This document shows, in pieces, positions 9,257-15,124 of a DNA stretch of 64,000 nt. Position numbers and translations under genes: made by a program. Below the pieces are notes generated by a model that was not told where the DNA came from, did not search any database, and was given only the letters and a program-made list of their open reading frames with translations. The stretch's first letter is position 1. Each line of letters starts with the position of its first letter. This DNA comes from an uncultured bacterium (GTDB taxonomy: Bacteria; Planctomycetota; UBA1135; GCA-002686595), in contig CALSNU010000004.1 in the NCBI GenBank assembly GCA_943787795.1, forward strand, positions 96,001 to 160,000. Direction: 5' to 3'.

Positions 9257-10444
9257 TCAGCGGCGCTGCTCGAGCACGCCCCAGACCAGGCTGGCGACGG
9301 GCTTGACCCGCCCGAACTCGCTGTTGGTCATGACCACCACTGCTCGCCCGCTGTCCGGCCGCACCGAGAGCAGGGTTCGGGTCTTCTCCTGCGATCCGGT
9401 GTGCCGGACCGTCCGCTCCCCGCCCACTGAAGCGACGCTAAACCCGAGGCCGTACGAGGTGCGCTCTCCGCTTGAGAGGCGCAGGGGTGTCCACATCCGG
9501 TCGAGCGCGGGGCGCGGCAGAAGGTCGTCGCCCATCAGACCCCGGGCGAATCGAGCCAGGTCGCCGACCGTGGAGATGAACCCGCCGCCGGCGAGCTTCC
9601 AGCTCACGTCTCGATCCAGGGACGGCACCACCTGTCGGGCCACGCGCCGGTAGCCGCGCGCGCGCCCGGAGATGGACACCCACTGGTCGTCCGGCTGGAG
9701 AGAGGCCATCCCGAGCGGCGCTGCGATGAACTCGTCCACCTGTTCCCGCAGGGACCCCTCACCCGCCCTCGCCACCGCCGCGCCGAGGAGCATGTAGCCA
9801 TGGGTCGAGTACGAGTACCGGCTGCCCGGCTCACAGACGAGCGGCGACTCCTTGAACCGATCCAGGGCCGCCACCGTGTCCATGAGGGGACGCCCTTCGG
9901 CCTCGCTGCGCTCCGTCACGATCACCTCCCCGTTGGAGTAGTGGACCACCCCACCGAGGTGCCCCGCGAGCTGCCGCGCGGTCACCGGCCAGGGTTTCAC
10001 CGGGAACTCCGGCACGAGCACGCGCACGTCATCGTCGAGATCCAGGCGGCCCGCCTCCGCGAGCTGAACCGCGCGCACGGCGACCAGCGGCTTCGAGATG
10101 GACGCCCAGCGGAACATGGTGCTCGGCCCAACAGGGGTCCTCGCCTCTCGGTCGGCGAAGCCGAAGTAGAACTCGTCGATCTCGTCCTCGACCACGACAG
10201 CCACCGCGAGTCCGACCAGCTCCTGGCGCGCAAATTCCTGCCTCAGAGCCCCGTGAAGAGCCGCCTCCAACGGGAGGTCCTCGGCCTGCGCCGTGAGGCG
10301 ACTCGCGGCCCAGTTGGGCGCCTCGGCAGTGCCGCCCAGCGGTTCACCGAGGGGCGTCCTTGGCAGCAGGCCGAGACCCACGGCCAGACCGATCCGGAGA
10401 GCGAGGGAGCCGAGCATCAGGCCCAGCCTAAGGCACGGCGACAC
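9257..10444 (-). CDS. Serine hydrolase, beta-lactamase class C/AmpC-like family
   Basis: SxxK (ASISK), YSYSTHGY, LAGGGFIST and HTG motifs. N-terminal hydrophobic segment. Confidence 0.9.
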   Translation of the reverse strand: MSPCLRLGLMLGSLALRIGLAVGLGLLPRTPLGEPLGGTAEAPNWAASRLTAQAEDLPLEAALHGALRQEFARQELVGLAVAVVVEDEIDEFYFGFADREARTPVGPSTMFRWASISKPLVAVRAVQLAEAGRLDLDDDVRVLVPEFPVKPWPVTARQLAGHLGGVVHYSNGEVIVTERSEAEGRPLMDTVAALDRFKESPLVCEPGSRYSYSTHGYMLLGAAVARAGEGSLREQVDEFIAAPLGMASLQPDDQWVSISGRARGYRRVARQVVPSLDRDVSWKLAGGGFISTVGDLARFARGLMGDDLLPRPALDRMWTPLRLSSGERTSYGLGFSVASVGGERTVRHTGSQEKTRTLLSVRPDSGRAVVVMTNSEFGRVKPVASLVWGVLEQRR

Positions 10445-10468
10445 GGTTCGCCCGCGCCTGCGGGAGGC

Positions 10469-11566
10469 TCAGGACCGCGCGACGAGGCGCCGCCGTCCCT
10501 GGTGCGCGGTGAGCACCCGGAGCGAGGCGGCCACCAGGCGCTCGACGGTGATCGTGGAGCGGTCCACATCACGGCGGTAGCTGCAGTAGTCCGGCGCGCT
10601 GCTCGCGACCTTCTCACCAAGGCCGAACAGGTCGATCTCGGGAGCGGAGGTCGGGGCAAAGAAGGCGACCGTCGGCACCTCCATGGCGAGGCCGAGGTGG
10701 AGCGCGAGGGAGTCGCTGGTCAGCAACAGGTCGCTCAGCCCCAAGATCGCTGCGAACGTGTTGAGGTCGTGGTCTGTGCCGGCGTCGATCACCCGAGGCG
10801 GCGCGTCGAGCCCTGCGAGCCCGGCGAGTATCCTGTCGTTCCTCTCTCGCTCCGCGGCACCTCCGAGGACGAGGAAGGTGACCGGGCGGTCCAGCGCCTC
10901 CTCCAACGCACCGGCGTAGGCGACGACCCGCTCGACGGGGAGTTCCTTGCTCCGCCAGCGTCCCCCGGCTCCGGTATTCAGCCCACAGACCAGGGTCGAG
11001 TCCTCGAGCCCGAAGTCCGTGGCGAAGCCCAGCGCGGCGGCGTGAGCCTCGGCCGGCAGGGGCAGCTCGGGTCGACCGCTCTCGACCCCCAGCATCGAGG
11101 CAAAGATCTCCGGGTGTGAGCGCTCGTTCTCCCGCTTGCGCCGATCGGCAGCCTCCTTGCCGTCCTTGGACAGGAGCCCCATCCCGAACCAGGGCTCCAC
11201 GTCGTCCGTGTAGGTCGGCTGCCCTTCAGCATCGAGAGTCGCCCCCGACAGTCGCGCGGTCTCCAGCGACGCGGCGAGCGTGCAGAACGGGACCTCATCG
11301 TCCAGGGACAGCACCCAGTCCCAGCGAATCCCGGGCAGCTCCGAGCGCACGGCAGCCACCGAGGCCGCGTCAGCCGGGTCACATGTGATCACCCGCGACA
11401 CGAGCCGGTGACGCTCCACGAGGCTCCGCGCCGCCGGCGCCACCAGCCACGTGAGCTCGAGGTCGGGGAAGCGCCGCTTGAGGCCCGGGAGCACGGAGGT
11501 CGTCCGGAGGACATCCCCGAGCGAGCCGGTCTTGATCATGAGAACCGAAGTCACACTGGAACTCAC
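10469..11566 (-). CDS. Glycosyltransferase family 9 (heptosyltransferase-like)
   Basis: IKTGSLGDVLRTT, GAGGRWRSKEL and TSDSLALHLGLA motifs. Start approximate. Confidence 0.9.
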   Translation of the reverse strand: MSSSVTSVLMIKTGSLGDVLRTTSVLPGLKRRFPDLELTWLVAPAARSLVERHRLVSRVITCDPADAASVAAVRSELPGIRWDWVLSLDDEVPFCTLAASLETARLSGATLDAEGQPTYTDDVEPWFGMGLLSKDGKEAADRRKRENERSHPEIFASMLGVESGRPELPLPAEAHAAALGFATDFGLEDSTLVCGLNTGAGGRWRSKELPVERVVAYAGALEEALDRPVTFLVLGGAAERERNDRILAGLAGLDAPPRVIDAGTDHDLNTFAAILGLSDLLLTSDSLALHLGLAMEVPTVAFFAPTSAPEIDLFGLGEKVASSAPDYCSYRRDVDRSTITVERLVAASLRVLTAHQGRRRLVARS

Positions 11567-11636
11567 TTCGCCGCCCCTCGGGGCCCCGCTCAAGCCCCGC
11601 CCGGGTTTCCTGGGGAAGTTCCAGAGGGAGATGCGC

Positions 11637-14006
11637 TCACCCCCCCGGAATCGCCAGGATCAGCTCGACCGCAGCCCCCGGGCCATGGCGCCGCGCCGCG
11701 GCCGGCCCCCTCGATGATTCGGTCGACAGCGCGGTCGACGGCGTTCCCTCTCGGGACTCGACCTCCAGCACCGCTGGTAACGGGCGACCGCTGGGATCCA
11801 GGAGCCAGGGCGCAGCGTGGGGGCACGCACCGGCCAGCTCAGCCAGCAGCTCCTGGGCGGTCCATCCCAAGGGCGGTGCGGCCAACTCCAGGCGGACCTC
11901 GTCCCCGGGGGAGGCGCCCGCTCCTGCGAGGATCACTCCGGGGTGCCCGGACAGACGCGCGCCGAGAGGCCCCCGCGCAAGCACCGTCAGCGGACCGGCG
12001 CCCGCGGGGAGGCGGTCGGTAGCCGCGTCGGGTCCCCCCTCGGCGCTCGCCTGGCGACCCTCTCCCCCGGGCGATTCGCGATGGAACAGACCGCCTTCCA
12101 CGTGCTCGTCCCGAGCCGCGAGGTATCCCTCCACCGCTGCGGGGTGACGCTCAAGGAGTCCATCAGGAATCACCCCGTCGGCCCCTTGGAGCTCCCGGTG
12201 AAGGGCCAGGTGGCGGGCTCCAGAGCGGAGGAAGACCGCCGCCGGAGTGGACCCCTCCTCGGGCGCGATGCCCAGGGCCTCGCCCAGCTCGGAGATCCCC
12301 ATGACGCCGTCGGCGAGGAGACCGGCGGCGGAGAAGGAGCAGAACCCGCTCACGTCCACCGCAGCGGCGACGCACTCGTGCCAGAAGGCAAGGGTCCCCG
12401 CGTCCCGCTCCCTGTCCCCCGACCACGGCAAGGGCGCGATCATCTCCCTCGCTCGCGCGCCGTCCAGGCCGAGGATGCTGAGGCTACGGAGCGGTTCCGG
12501 TCCGCGGACGGCGAGCGCCTGCCCGACCTCTGCGGCCAGGTCGCCGCGGGCGAAGGTGTCCCCCGCGCCTGGAAGCTGCGTACGCTCCAGAGCCGCGGCG
12601 TGGATCTCGCTGTCCGGGTCGAGGAGCCCGGCGAAGAAGACCTCTGGGGAGGCGGACGGGAAGCAGGTCATGAGCCCCGCAACGGCCCGCGCGTCCACCC
12701 CGAGGTGATTGCAGCGCTCGAGGAGCTCCAGCGGATCGCCCCGCTCCGCGAACCCCTGGAGCGCAGAGAAGCGACCGCCAACCCTTGATCCACCGCGGCC
12801 TTCGACCTCGAAGGTCCAGCCGCATGGAGTCGGACACCCAGCACAGCCGTGCTTGCGCCGGGGCGCATCCACTGCGAGGGCCGAGCCTCGGCTCGCGGCA
12901 AGCTCGAGAGTCCCCCCCGTCGCGCGGCTCAAGAGCCGAGGAGATCGCACGAGCGCGGCCTCCAAGGGGTGCCTCGGGCCAGCGCTCGGCGAGCCCGGGT
13001 CGCCCGGGTCGAGGTCCGCGGGCTCCGCAGCGTGTAGGTTCGCTGGGTCGGGGTTCGCTGGATCGGGGTTCGCTGGATCGGAGGTTGCTGGCGACGAGGC
13101 ACCAACGGGCTCCTCTCCGGCGGGCCAAGGCACCTCCTCCACCGTGAGGGCCACGACCCCCGCCGCGGCGAGGGCGGCGCCGAGCCCGCCCCGCCCGACC
13201 ACGCTGGGCGCGGCATCAGGGTCAGCGCCGTCAAAGCTCGAGAGGTTGGCGAAGGGGAGGCCGGCCTGGGCGCCCGGCCCGGTGGCGAGGGTGTGGACCC
13301 TGGCCGACGGGCCTCCCAGCCGAAGCGCACGCGCGGCGGCGCCGAGCGAGACCAGCTCAGCCGGAGCGTGTTCCACCTCGGCTTCGCCGCTGCCAAGGAC
13401 CCGAACCACGCTCGTCCCCGCGGCCCGCCCCAGCAGCACCAGCGCGTCGGCATGGGCGGCCAGCGCGCGCCCGAACGGTCCGCCAACCTGGGCCTCTGTG
13501 AGCCCCGGCCGAAGGGGAGCCCGGGCGGAGAGGGTCGCCCGTGCCGCGGTCGGGACGGCCCGCCGGACCGCGTCGCCCACCGAGACCACGAGGCTCGGCT
13601 CCGCCAGGACACTCTCCACGAGGCCAGCCCCATGCGAAGCGCTGGCAGGCGGCCCCAAGGCGTCCGTCAGACTCCGTTCGCGGGAACGGCGCGCGGCGGC
13701 GAAGAGCGCGGCCGCGAGCGCCGGTCCAGAGCTCGCCACGGCAGCTCGGAGGTCGGGGGCAGCAGAGATCGCGGCCCTGATGCCCTCGAGCCAGCTCCTG
13801 GCCCCGTCGACCGCGTCGGCCCAATCAGCCCTGTCAGCTCGGTTAGCCCGGTCAGCTCGGTTAGCCCGGTCAGCTCGGTCAGCCCGGTCAGCACCCTCAG
13901 CGGCGATCGGGCCCAACGCGACGACGAGGACCCGACGCCCGGCGAGCTCGCCCAGGAACACGGAGCCAGCCCCCTGCGGAGGCTCTGAAGGGTCGCGGAC
14001 CATCAC
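11637..14006 (-). CDS. Aldehyde:ferredoxin oxidoreductase-like protein fused to C-terminal MoaD/ThiS-like domain
   Basis: AOR-type segments ARAPL..GLTEAQVGGPFG, TGPGA, GRGGLGA, CAGCPTPC, CNHLGVD, DVSGFCSF. The C-terminus ends AVELILAIPGG-stop. Confidence 0.75.
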   Translation of the reverse strand: MMVRDPSEPPQGAGSVFLGELAGRRVLVVALGPIAAEGADRADRADRANRADRANRADRADWADAVDGARSWLEGIRAAISAAPDLRAAVASSGPALAAALFAAARRSRERSLTDALGPPASASHGAGLVESVLAEPSLVVSVGDAVRRAVPTAARATLSARAPLRPGLTEAQVGGPFGRALAAHADALVLLGRAAGTSVVRVLGSGEAEVEHAPAELVSLGAAARALRLGGPSARVHTLATGPGAQAGLPFANLSSFDGADPDAAPSVVGRGGLGAALAAAGVVALTVEEVPWPAGEEPVGASSPATSDPANPDPANPDPANLHAAEPADLDPGDPGSPSAGPRHPLEAALVRSPRLLSRATGGTLELAASRGSALAVDAPRRKHGCAGCPTPCGWTFEVEGRGGSRVGGRFSALQGFAERGDPLELLERCNHLGVDARAVAGLMTCFPSASPEVFFAGLLDPDSEIHAAALERTQLPGAGDTFARGDLAAEVGQALAVRGPEPLRSLSILGLDGARAREMIAPLPWSGDRERDAGTLAFWHECVAAAVDVSGFCSFSAAGLLADGVMGISELGEALGIAPEEGSTPAAVFLRSGARHLALHRELQGADGVIPDGLLERHPAAVEGYLAARDEHVEGGLFHRESPGGEGRQASAEGGPDAATDRLPAGAGPLTVLARGPLGARLSGHPGVILAGAGASPGDEVRLELAAPPLGWTAQELLAELAGACPHAAPWLLDPSGRPLPAVLEVESREGTPSTALSTESSRGPAAARRHGPGAAVELILAIPGG
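13037..13085. repeat. In-frame 15-bp tandem repeat (DPANP)x3
   Basis: GGTTCGCTGGATCGG-like unit repeated three times. Confidence 0.75.
13822..13895. repeat. In-frame 9/18-bp tandem repeat (ADR/ANR)n
   Basis: GTCAGCTCGGTTAGCCCG units, encoding ADRADRADRANRADRANRADRAD. Confidence 0.8.
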
Positions 14007-14134: not shown

Positions 14135-15124
14135 TTGTTCGAGAACCACACCATCGCGCGGATCGCCGGGATCCCCATCCGCGCCAACCTGCTCCTCGGC
14201 TATCTGCTCGCCTTCTGGGCGATCATGGGCGCGTCGCGGGGTAAGGCGGAGCTCACGCTCACCCTGATCGTCCTCTCCATGGGCCTGCTGCTGCTCCACG
14301 AGCTCGGCCACGCCCTCATGGCCCGCCGCTTCGGTCTGCAGGTGGTCGACATCGTGATCTGGCCGCTCGGCGGCATGGCCCGCATCAGCGACTTCCCCGC
14401 GGACCCCCGCACGGAGGCGTGGGTCGCGGCCGCGGGCCCCCTGGTCAACCTGACCCTCGCCACCCTCGCCGCGCCGCTGGTGCTCTTGACCGGTGGCAGC
14501 GGGGCTGCCTTTGAGTTCACCCGAGGCGGAGGCCTCGGGTTCAGCCCGGACAGCGGAGGCCTCCTCTCCCTGTTCGTGGTCATCAACCTCGCCTTCGGCC
14601 TGATCAACCTCATCCCCGCCTTCCCCATGGACGGTGGTCGGCTGCTGCGCTCCTTCCTGGGCCGCGGCAGCAGGGACTGGGTCGCCGCGACAGACCGTGC
14701 GACCCGCGTGGGGAGCGTGATCGCCTGGGTGATGATCATCTCCTTCATCGCGCGCGGCGAGTGGCTCCTGTCCCTGCTGGGGTTCTTCATCCTCTTTGCG
14801 GGCATGAAGGAGCGCTTGACGGTCCGCCTCCGCGACCAGGCCGAGCACCTTGGCGGCGGGCCCGGTCGCTTTGCCGGCTGGGAGAGCCTCCTCCGCCAGC
14901 GCGGCGGGCCCTTTCCTGGCATGGGGTTCCCCGGCGCCGAGCCACGGGCAGAGGGTCCGGGAGAAGAAAGTCGACCGGCCCAGGGCCCTGCTGGCCAAGG
15001 GCCGGCGACCGCGTCAGGCGCCGAGGGCAGCCCGGGCCCCGGGTTCTCCGAGGACGACGTCCGCCGCCTGGAGTCCTTCCGCGGCCGATTGCCGCGCAAG
15101 CCCGGGGTCAACGACCCGGACTGA
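14135..15124 (+). CDS. Site-2 protease (peptidase M50 family)
   Basis: HELGH, AAAGPLVN and NLIPAFPMDGGR motifs. Multiple TM segments. Start (TTG) approximate. Confidence 0.93.
   Translation: MFENHTIARIAGIPIRANLLLGYLLAFWAIMGASRGKAELTLTLIVLSMGLLLLHELGHALMARRFGLQVVDIVIWPLGGMARISDFPADPRTEAWVAAAGPLVNLTLATLAAPLVLLTGGSGAAFEFTRGGGLGFSPDSGGLLSLFVVINLAFGLINLIPAFPMDGGRLLRSFLGRGSRDWVAATDRATRVGSVIAWVMIISFIARGEWLLSLLGFFILFAGMKERLTVRLRDQAEHLGGGPGRFAGWESLLRQRGGPFPGMGFPGAEPRAEGPGEESRPAQGPAGQGPATASGAEGSPGPGFSEDDVRRLESFRGRLPRKPGVNDPD

Follow-up and report, generated by a model that had tools for sequence, protein, structure and literature searches.

Within the window analysed here, a 64,000-nucleotide stretch of contig CALSNU010000004.1 from an uncultured member of the Planctomycetota, a single gene joins a protein of the aldehyde ferredoxin oxidoreductase (AOR) family to a C-terminal ubiquitin-like (Ubl) domain ending in Gly-Gly. 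This fusion is a near-core gene of one planctomycete family. It has lost the residues with which related enzymes oxidise aldehydes and has kept its cluster cysteines and most of its pterin contacts, and the tail of its Ubl domain is predicted to dock into the former active-site funnel. We tentatively propose that a tethered carrier brings sulfur to the pterin/metal site of a divergent AOR scaffold.

Translation of positions 11637-14006 on the reverse strand gives 789 amino acids with zero internal stops and the end ...ELILAIPGG-stop; the database version of the protein has 768 amino acids, so that the true start is uncertain. Contigs from two DNA runs of other studies span the junction between the two parts without an insertion or deletion (X5 10300-12944; X6 11474-13070), and among 81 open reading frames (ORFs; 80 GTDB loci and the window) 73 close with GG-stop, four carry a short extension and four are cut by a contig end. 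The junction contigs and the GG-stop ORFs together rule out an assembly artefact, a stop or frameshift between aor and moaD being the risk that the first-pass annotation of the window had named. Marine metagenomes contain the window's DNA, and contigs from RNA libraries cover the fusion gene patchily and at low depth, which is no demonstration of transcription. In-frame tandem repeats occupy low-complexity loops (13825-13901 and 13037-13091), with one run lacking an 18-bp unit.

Judged by the fold of its model, the N-terminal part belongs to the AOR/WOR family. Pfam AFOR_N matches at 57.3 bits (cut-off 29.8), AFOR_C reaches 16.4 bits, below its cut-off of 27, and a sequence comparison with Pfam gives no family for the last 120 residues. 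A profile of 66 homologues finds the Pyrococcus furiosus enzyme (PfAOR, 1AOR) at 1.8e-42. The AlphaFold2 (AF2) model of the window protein (predicted local distance difference test, pLDDT, 83.6; predicted template modelling score, pTM, 0.89) aligns with AOR structures at Z 23-27 over model residues 20-640, and with 1AOR at Z 26.7 and a root-mean-square deviation (rmsd) of 3.4 Å across 462 residues (model range 23-639). Residue counts below refer to 148 family rows, mapped by way of one canonical AOR and its alignment with 1AOR, in which PfAOR numbers outside the cited passages are in part counted. Each of the four [4Fe-4S] cysteine columns is invariant in these rows (148/148), and the initial description of an uninterrupted 789-residue AOR-like ORF with all four cluster cysteines agrees with both translation and alignment.

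The C-terminal domain is a predicted beta-grasp fold with SAMP1 and MoaD as its closest structural matches. Over its last 75-90 positions, the 66-homologue profile matches SAMP1 at 1e-4 and MoaD-type chains more weakly. Residues 670-787 of the full model align with SAMP1 at Z 9.3 (rmsd 2.2 Å, 84 residues), and SAMP1 and MoaD alignments reach Z 8-9 over about residues 669-789. When the domain was folded alone, the top 12 rows of an unbiased structure search were all of MoaD/SAMP/Urm1/CysO type (top rows Z 8.5-7.8; SAMP1 at Z 8.5, rmsd 2.3, 83 aligned). The assignment of a ubiquitin-like domain with terminal GG in the first-pass annotation thus holds up, the model of the last 120 residues included. 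Its length of about 117 residues is correct for the window; typical members, on the other hand, have a domain of 84-86 residues, the excess here being low-complexity inserts.

The fusion is kept across relatives together with a conserved, potentially activatable GG, which is present in 236/236 family proteins with a complete Ubl match. Altogether, 249 family proteins comprise 211 that end in GG, 25 with GG and a short variable extension, and 13 without a complete Ubl match that appear partial or frameshifted and were not individually checked; in a first homologue search, 80 of 97 proteins (window included) ended in GG. The hallmarks of MoaD are an N-terminal FAxLRE and a C-terminal PPVxGG pattern, both carried by the genome's own MoaD. 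Neither occurs in the family's Ubl domain (FAxLRE in 0/64, PPxxGG, or PPVxGG, in 0/249), whose best scores against the MoaD models of NCBIfam lie far below cut-off.

Active site and predicted docking of the tail

The second shell of aldehyde-oxidising AORs is described, in the available passages, as T243, E313, Y427 and H448, together with E311 and Y312 (PMC12096430, PMC13328260). This shell is lost throughout the family. The E311 column holds Arg in 116 rows, His in 30 and Lys and Thr in one each, the E313 column Ser (69), Gly (57), Ala (13) or Asn (9), and the H448 column Pro (144), Ser (2) or Arg (2), which leaves Glu, Glu and His, respectively, at 0/148. The T344 column is Ala in 145 rows, and the 427 column aligns with a gap, Tyr being outside its six commonest residues; T243 is Thr or Ser in 142/148 (T124, S18). 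No Cys occurs at columns 311-314, and hence no extra metal ligand of the YdhV/BamB type there; we take this segment to be the site of that ligand, which is consistent with the YdhV-like row L093. Replacement of the EYET segment (here by RFSA) and of SKNLKA by AAGVVA had both been noted from the start and are both seen, the latter proving uninformative, as the segment varies family-wide (consensus GLxA).

The pterin side looks different. R76, G185, D343 and D489 are invariant, as is G95, so that five of the six pterin contacts described for AOR-Aa (equivalents of R76, G95, R182, D343, D489 and C494; PMC10413684) persist (R76, G95, D343, D489, C494); the sixth, R182, is replaced by Ser (120) or His (22). 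Since most pterin contacts and the cluster residues are kept and the second shell is lost, the cofactor pockets look maintained and aldehyde catalysis gone. We propose from these alignments that the fusion protein no longer oxidises aldehydes, and it probably still binds a [4Fe-4S] cluster along with a bis-pyranopterin cofactor. The earlier phrase "repurposed Fe-S scaffold" therefore fits the family-wide loss of the second shell but understates how many pterin contacts persist. In the sister family introduced below as f7, the AOR protein retains E311 and H448 and has Gly at 313.

A complex prediction for the natural unfused AOR-Ubl pair of f7 (64-row alignments) scored 0.88, with 0.00 for the best of three controls; the mark for such scores is reached by 116 of 157 solved pairs and 2 of 215 mismatched ones, counts that are rough where own alignments are used. 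Contacts agreed to at least 78% between runs, and partner pLDDT was at least 85. The interface comprises residues 8-12, 46-62 and 76-84 of the Ubl and 226-247, 267-269, 305-307, 432-451 and 490-500 of the AOR protein, of which 305-307 correspond to E311-G313, 432 to H448, and 490-500 include the residues after C494. From known AOR structures, we take these segments to line the substrate funnel. The tail of the f7 Ubl is thus predicted to dock into the former active-site funnel. For the window protein the indication is indirect: its pTM of 0.89 is higher than the maximum of 0.82-0.86 expected by calculation if the Ubl were unplaced and the disordered residues counted in. Among matches of the 66-homologue profile, no PDB entry holds AOR and Ubl chains together.

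Residues near-invariant in this clade only are enriched in the 45-residue interface (7/21, against 2/29 of those shared with canonical AORs; hypergeometric p 4e-4), a caution against the docking argument being that this test is not independent of the alignment driving the model and used two canonical references only. The seven are P356, R357, R361, E368, F413, P505 and D566 in window numbering.

Distribution, selection and origin

In what follows, f1 is the window's planctomycete family, f7 its sister family and g8 one genus, and 151 genomes of the class were sampled. Among them, AFOR_N was found in 80/84 genomes of f1, 3/3 of f7 and 1/32 of f3 (weak, at a contig end), and in 0 genomes of f2, f4, f5, f6 and f8. 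The sole AFOR_N matches of two f1 genomes (G010, G095) are other AOR types, which leaves 78, in which the fusion was not confirmed one by one. Across 300 genomes of the phylum, the best score outside f1 was 224 bits, as against 545-688 for full-length f1 matches. The named carriers of the fusion are Planctomycetota, including the cultured Saltatorellus ferox and Engelhardtia mirabilis, and the cultured members are, as far as is known, aerobic. Copies of the gene labelled Glaciecola (L058), Paracoccaceae (L022) and Chlamydiales (P0038), the first two in a planctomycete neighbourhood, are probably mislabelled or mis-binned.

In nine close pairs, the ratio of nonsynonymous to synonymous substitution rates (dN/dS) was 0.06-0.30 for the AOR part, 0.11-0.56 for the Ubl and 0.04-0.22 for the neighbouring GT9 gene. 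By these ratios, the fusion gene is under purifying selection, which rules out a pseudogene. It is also hard to see it as a catalytically dead relic or pseudo-enzyme, structural or binding Fe-S or pterin, that is slowly decaying. Such decay would fit a family whose members are mostly just 30-40% identical to the window protein, whose branch is long (stem 0.87), which has lost helices in the window's subclade and the whole gene, cleanly, in g8, and in which TupA is missing from 82/84 f1 genomes. However, the ORFs are intact, dN/dS lies well under 1 and near that of the GT9 neighbour, new invariant residues have been gained, and retention in f1 is near-universal, so that we regard this explanation as very unlikely.

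All three f7 genomes have the orthologue split into an AOR of 617-619 aa and the 84-86 aa product of an overlapping gene, which ends in VAGG, and in two of the three no more than 5 kb separates the pair from the same GT9 gene. In a quick maximum-likelihood tree of 59 AOR domains, with a midpoint root and strong composition bias, f7 falls beside the fused clade (support 99), whose stem measures 0.87 (support 100), and a grade with mostly E-F/Y-G in place of E-Y-E stands between these and the canonical AORs. At four loci of this grade, one only 2.3 kb long, no Ubl gene is adjacent. This suggests that the fused clade arose by its own fusion of an adjacent pair as seen in f7, and the unfused sister pair likewise suggests an event separate from the proteobacterial fusion discussed below.

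One f7-type unfused AOR (P0218, 622 aa) has a chain that ends in ...SGVAGG without a beta-grasp domain. This ending may have arisen by chance, stem from a read with a frameshift or mark an intermediate on the way to the fusion. The wider AOR grade (P0208, P0213, P0225, P0282, L102-L104, L128) combines its mostly E-F/Y-G segment with a WW(H/Q)EN motif, and no Ubl gene is adjacent at the loci seen.

A possible role in sulfur delivery

The invariant GG, the flexible linker, a funnel in which Arg/His and small residues have taken the place of acidic catalytic ones and the predicted tail-in-funnel complex are most economically explained if the Ubl is a tethered carrier bringing sulfur, as a thiocarboxylate, to the pterin/metal site of the divergent AOR scaffold, a reading that we judge to fall just short of probable. 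A JAMM protease would trim any extension after the GG, and the genome's one E1 could then adenylate Gly789, with a sulfur relay yielding the thiocarboxylate as in MoaD/ThiS chemistry. The Ubl would swing back on its tether and thread its tail into the former substrate funnel, as the docking predicted for the f7 pair suggests, where the Arg or His replacing Glu311 could hold the anion. Once at the pterin/metal site, the sulfur might be used to sulfurate or repair the cofactor of the protein itself, or its transfer might form the opening half of a turnover that passes sulfur on. A more ambitious version, in which an E1-recharged swinging Ubl arm serves a multi-turnover sulfur transferase, with sulfur passing onto a molybdenum (Mo)- or tungsten (W)-bis-pterin and then into an anionic substrate, seems unlikely to us; if true, such chemistry would be new to AOR-family enzymes, and AOR-linked Ubls (WorX) would be shown to be able to act directly on the enzyme and not via MoaE.

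The genome, 85% complete, encodes ModABC, MoaC, MogA, one MoeA, a MoaD-MoaE fusion and several Mo-enzymes, as well as ThiS beside a ThiG-like gene. The first-pass annotation had pointed to activating, processing, cofactor and transport genes: one ThiF/MoeB (E1) gene over cut-off and one desampylase-like JAMM are indeed there, and so are the molybdenum-cofactor genes, whereas the tungstate transporter was not found. A TupA query matched 2/84 f1 genomes, each of which has another type of AOR, and nothing in the 85% of the window's own genome. Since the Mo-handling set occurs without TupA, Mo is likelier than W as the metal, following the reasoning applied to Class V WORs in PMC13328260. A JAMM homologue is present in 4/4 extension-bearing genomes tested and in 9/11 overall, and the same query found none in two f7 genomes. 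In Deinococcus, a JAMM protease is reported to cleave MoaD-MoaE (PMC8832034). The MoaD-MoaE fusion of the own genome (L190:3690-4544, G000:C6) bears an insertion of about 50 Gly/Pro-rich residues within MoaE.

Pterin supply is indicated by MoaC in 80/84 and MoaE in 83/84 f1 genomes, and replacement of a missing MoaE is rejected on that count. Given also that the Ubl lacks the MoaD patterns, it is not needed as a housekeeping subunit of molybdopterin synthase. An ordinary aor+moaD (WorX) pair could still have been fused for co-expression, the Ubl working with MoaE as a second MoaD to supply pterin, and the AOR part doing unrelated redox work on a larger or anionic substrate. This role has been proposed for AOR-linked MoaD/WorX (PMC1779556, PMC13328260, PMC6365974), Thermococcus kodakarensis without its AOR-linked Ubl has about 54% AOR activity (PMC11323500), and YdhV, BamB and GAPOR are AOR-family members without some or all second-shell residues (PMC12096430); the unfused ancestor, moreover, is a standard adjacent pair. 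However, the motifs seen in the genome's working MoaD are missing from the Ubl, a housekeeping MoaD-MoaE is already present, and the residues that mark the clade are concentrated where the Ubl is predicted to bind, which leaves co-expression an explanation with perhaps one chance in several.

Several points weigh against sulfur delivery by a tethered carrier. More distant relatives already carry Gly or Ala at the Glu313 position, and no Ubl gene was found beside their AOR genes at L102, L103, L104, L128 and L191; the loss of Glu313 thus predates the Ubl link and was not brought about by the tail. Of the pterin contacts, R182 has been lost. In both genomes of g8 the fusion gene is absent from the locus and M50 directly adjoins GT9, and no linked gene for a sulfur acceptor, electron partner or sulfurtransferase was found. 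The complex was folded for the f7 pair and not for the window protein, in whose subclade the part corresponding to interface residues 247-268 is missing. The output of the prediction consists of interface residues rather than tail-site contacts, with G83/G84 in none of the 25 best pairs. Nor is the window's GG shown to be ordered: pLDDT of the last block is 83 in the full model and 80 then 51 in the domain folded alone, values in the latter that are compatible with a loose GG. Finally, the available literature passages on AOR-family cofactors give no sulfido ligand.

The same docking prediction fits a tail that binds without sulfur, its free carboxylate acting as a plug (autoinhibition, oxygen protection) or standing in for Glu313 as metal ligand or base. 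Glu313 is absent in 148/148, Gly-Gly may be kept merely to fit a narrow funnel, and no E1 or sulfur-relay gene is among the recurrent annotated neighbours. A permanent plug would, however, bar substrate, the extensions in 25/236 members require processing anyway, and the loss of Glu313 is older than the Ubl link; we consider a sulfur-free tail rather improbable. As for covalent conjugation of the whole protein, which the first-pass annotation had entertained, no finding here came out in its favour. A SAMP/TtuB-like modifier with a 70-kDa cargo, attached to targets via its C-terminal Gly, would be compatible with the SAMP1-like nearest folds and profiles, with the E1 and desampylase-like JAMM of the genome, and with the conjugates formed by archaeal AOR-linked Ubls (PMC11323500, in part). 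Yet no E2/E3-like or target gene is among the recurrent annotated neighbours, in the predicted complex the AOR domain already engages the tail region, and ThiS and the MoaD-MoaE fusion account for E1 and JAMM, so that we give this idea hardly any credence.

Known relatives and neighbouring genes

The architecture is not an undescribed system, as had been supposed, because a MoaD fused C-terminally to an AOR was reported in 2006 for Azoarcus, with the suggestion that AOR-linked MoaD may serve tungsten-cofactor synthesis (Iyer, Burroughs and Aravind; PMC1779556, in part). What is new is the planctomycete clade. The ESM Atlas holds two Pseudomonadota clusters of AFOR+ThiS fusions (773-774 aa) and a separate Planctomycetota cluster. 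The Azoarcus/Pseudomonadota proteins, as far as described, share domain order and terminal Gly-Gly with the window's; in the planctomycete clade E311, E313 and H448 have been lost and the fusion is a near-core gene. No PF02597 match was found among the 120 of 373 longer AOR matches listed, and no AOR-ThiS fusion was apparent from product names in the plasmid records listed (40/87 and 60/95). Many AORs among these 120 (P0292-P0411), for the most part from archaea where a name is given, share a chain with another enzyme, which is an AMP-binding acyl-CoA synthetase (Thorarchaeota), an Fe-alcohol dehydrogenase or a barrel of the hexulose-phosphate synthase/OMP decarboxylase kind.

Class I WOR with an adjacent ThiS-like WorX, AorD/AorE of Aromatoleum and UblC (TK1065) of Thermococcus likewise pair an AOR with a dedicated beta-grasp GG protein (PMC13328260, PMC6365974, PMC11323500). 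The second shell for aldehyde oxidation is intact in those AORs, which belong mostly to TupABC-bearing hosts; neither holds for the window clade. WorX is described as no subunit, whereas a covalent tether holds the clade's Ubl, for which docking in the funnel is predicted. PfAOR (1AOR), 9G7J, 9MQX and 8C0Z share with the clade the fold (Z 24-27), the four cluster Cys, T243 and most pterin contacts, and differ from it in that E311, E313, H448, T344 and R182 are replaced, the Y427 region is altered and a Ubl is added in the clade. Escherichia coli YdhV (bis-Mo-MPT, MPT being molybdopterin) and BamB resemble the clade as AOR-family proteins without the usual second shell, and YdhV is a Mo enzyme whose host has no TupABC, as seems likely here; they have an extra Cys metal ligand and multi-subunit complexes, whereas the clade has no Cys at 311-314 and no linked partner subunits.

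In TtuA/TtuB and BexX/CysO, a Ubl thiocarboxylate tail enters the active site of an enzyme and delivers sulfur, and 5GHA and 4N6E are fold matches of the isolated Ubl domain. Their acceptor folds are unrelated to the window's. TtuA has a three-Cys cluster with free iron; because the clade keeps all four Cys, a TtuA-like free-iron cluster is not favoured.

The literature covered, from which most subscription journals are missing, holds no description of this planctomycete clade, its residue losses or a Ubl docking on an AOR. Three files of the PMC13328260 supplement (46,045 characters) contain no planctomycete names, though these may not include all of the 4,064-sequence dataset, and passages of bioRxiv 10.1101/817700 have no bearing on the clade. 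Small ThiS/MoaD-like genes beside tungsten AORs have been on record since 2006, and that 2026 classification still calls their exact function unknown (PMC13328260). The planctomycete clade offers a specific, testable tail-in-funnel model on one polypeptide, in a lineage with cultured members and with both a natural unfused control pair (f7) and a natural deletion lineage (g8) at hand, and thus a way to test directly what small sulfur-carrier genes beside such enzymes do. The annotation "aldehyde ferredoxin oxidoreductase" in about 80 genomes is probably wrong as to activity and metal.

Table 1. Features of the fusion gene and its neighbours, in window positions (residue counts out of 148 family rows)
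Feature	Position	Strand	Remarks
GT9 (heptosyltransferase-like) gene, downstream neighbour	10469..11593	-	74/80 loci; occurs without the fusion too
Fusion gene, 789 aa	11637..14006	-	Start GTG 14006 or ATG 14003; true start maybe later
Terminal Gly788-Gly789	11640..11645	-	Translation; conserved in family
Beta-grasp (SAMP1/MoaD-like) domain, ~residues 669-789, with low-complexity inserts	11640..12002	-	Profile and structure matches
Low-confidence linker, ~residues 641-668	12003..12086	-	pLDDT about 50
AOR/WOR-fold domain, ~residues 14-640	12087..13967	-	AFOR_N 57.3 bits; Z 26.7 to 1AOR
Cys556 of DxxGFC (GFCSF), fourth cluster ligand (PfAOR C494), Asp551 upstream	12339..12341	-	148/148
Pro505 replacing PfAOR His448	12492..12494	-	P 144, S 2, R 2
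R412-F413-S414 replacing PfAOR E311-Y312-E313	12765..12773	-	Alignment
CxxCxxxC, Cys388/391/395 (CAGCPTPC), [4Fe-4S] ligands	12822..12845	-	Each 148/148
SPRLxxR clade signature, residues 355-361	12924..12944	-	P 146, R 144, L 148, R 148; in predicted Ubl-binding surface
VGRGG motif, residues 270-274 (PfAOR G185-R186), pterin/phosphate loop	13185..13199	-	G 148/148, R 147/148
In-frame 9/18/27-bp tandem repeat near N-terminus	13825..13901	.	18 bp absent from one run
M50 peptidase gene, divergent neighbour	14135..15124	+	68/80 loci

The gap between fusion gene and GT9 is at most 150 bases in 57/74 loci. Synteny and short gaps of this kind prompted the idea of a functional link to GT9 (thiosugar or lipopolysaccharide) or to M50, which we set aside because GT9 also occurs in AOR-free families and M50 abuts GT9 in the fusion-less g8; GT9 homologues are present in 84/84 f1, 20/20 f2, 4/4 f4 and 4/4 f5 genomes, the last three families being without AFOR_N. 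The GT9 proteins of f7 (L090:10861-11997, L101:3-587) have an N-terminal Cys-rich extension that is absent from the window's. At 17/80 loci, a patatin and 4Fe-4S dicluster fusion lies upstream of M50 or of the fusion gene (e.g., L045:3181-4344).

Elsewhere in the own genome, a molybdopterin oxidoreductase match with one in-frame TGA (G000:C4:644457-645725) is possibly a selenocysteine formate dehydrogenase. Another AOR type found in f1 genomes (L095:60-3532, L097:6487-8933) sits with two MoeA genes; in L095, one MoeA has a SAMP1/MoaD-like domain at its N-terminus, and the second MoeA belongs to the PRK14498 type.

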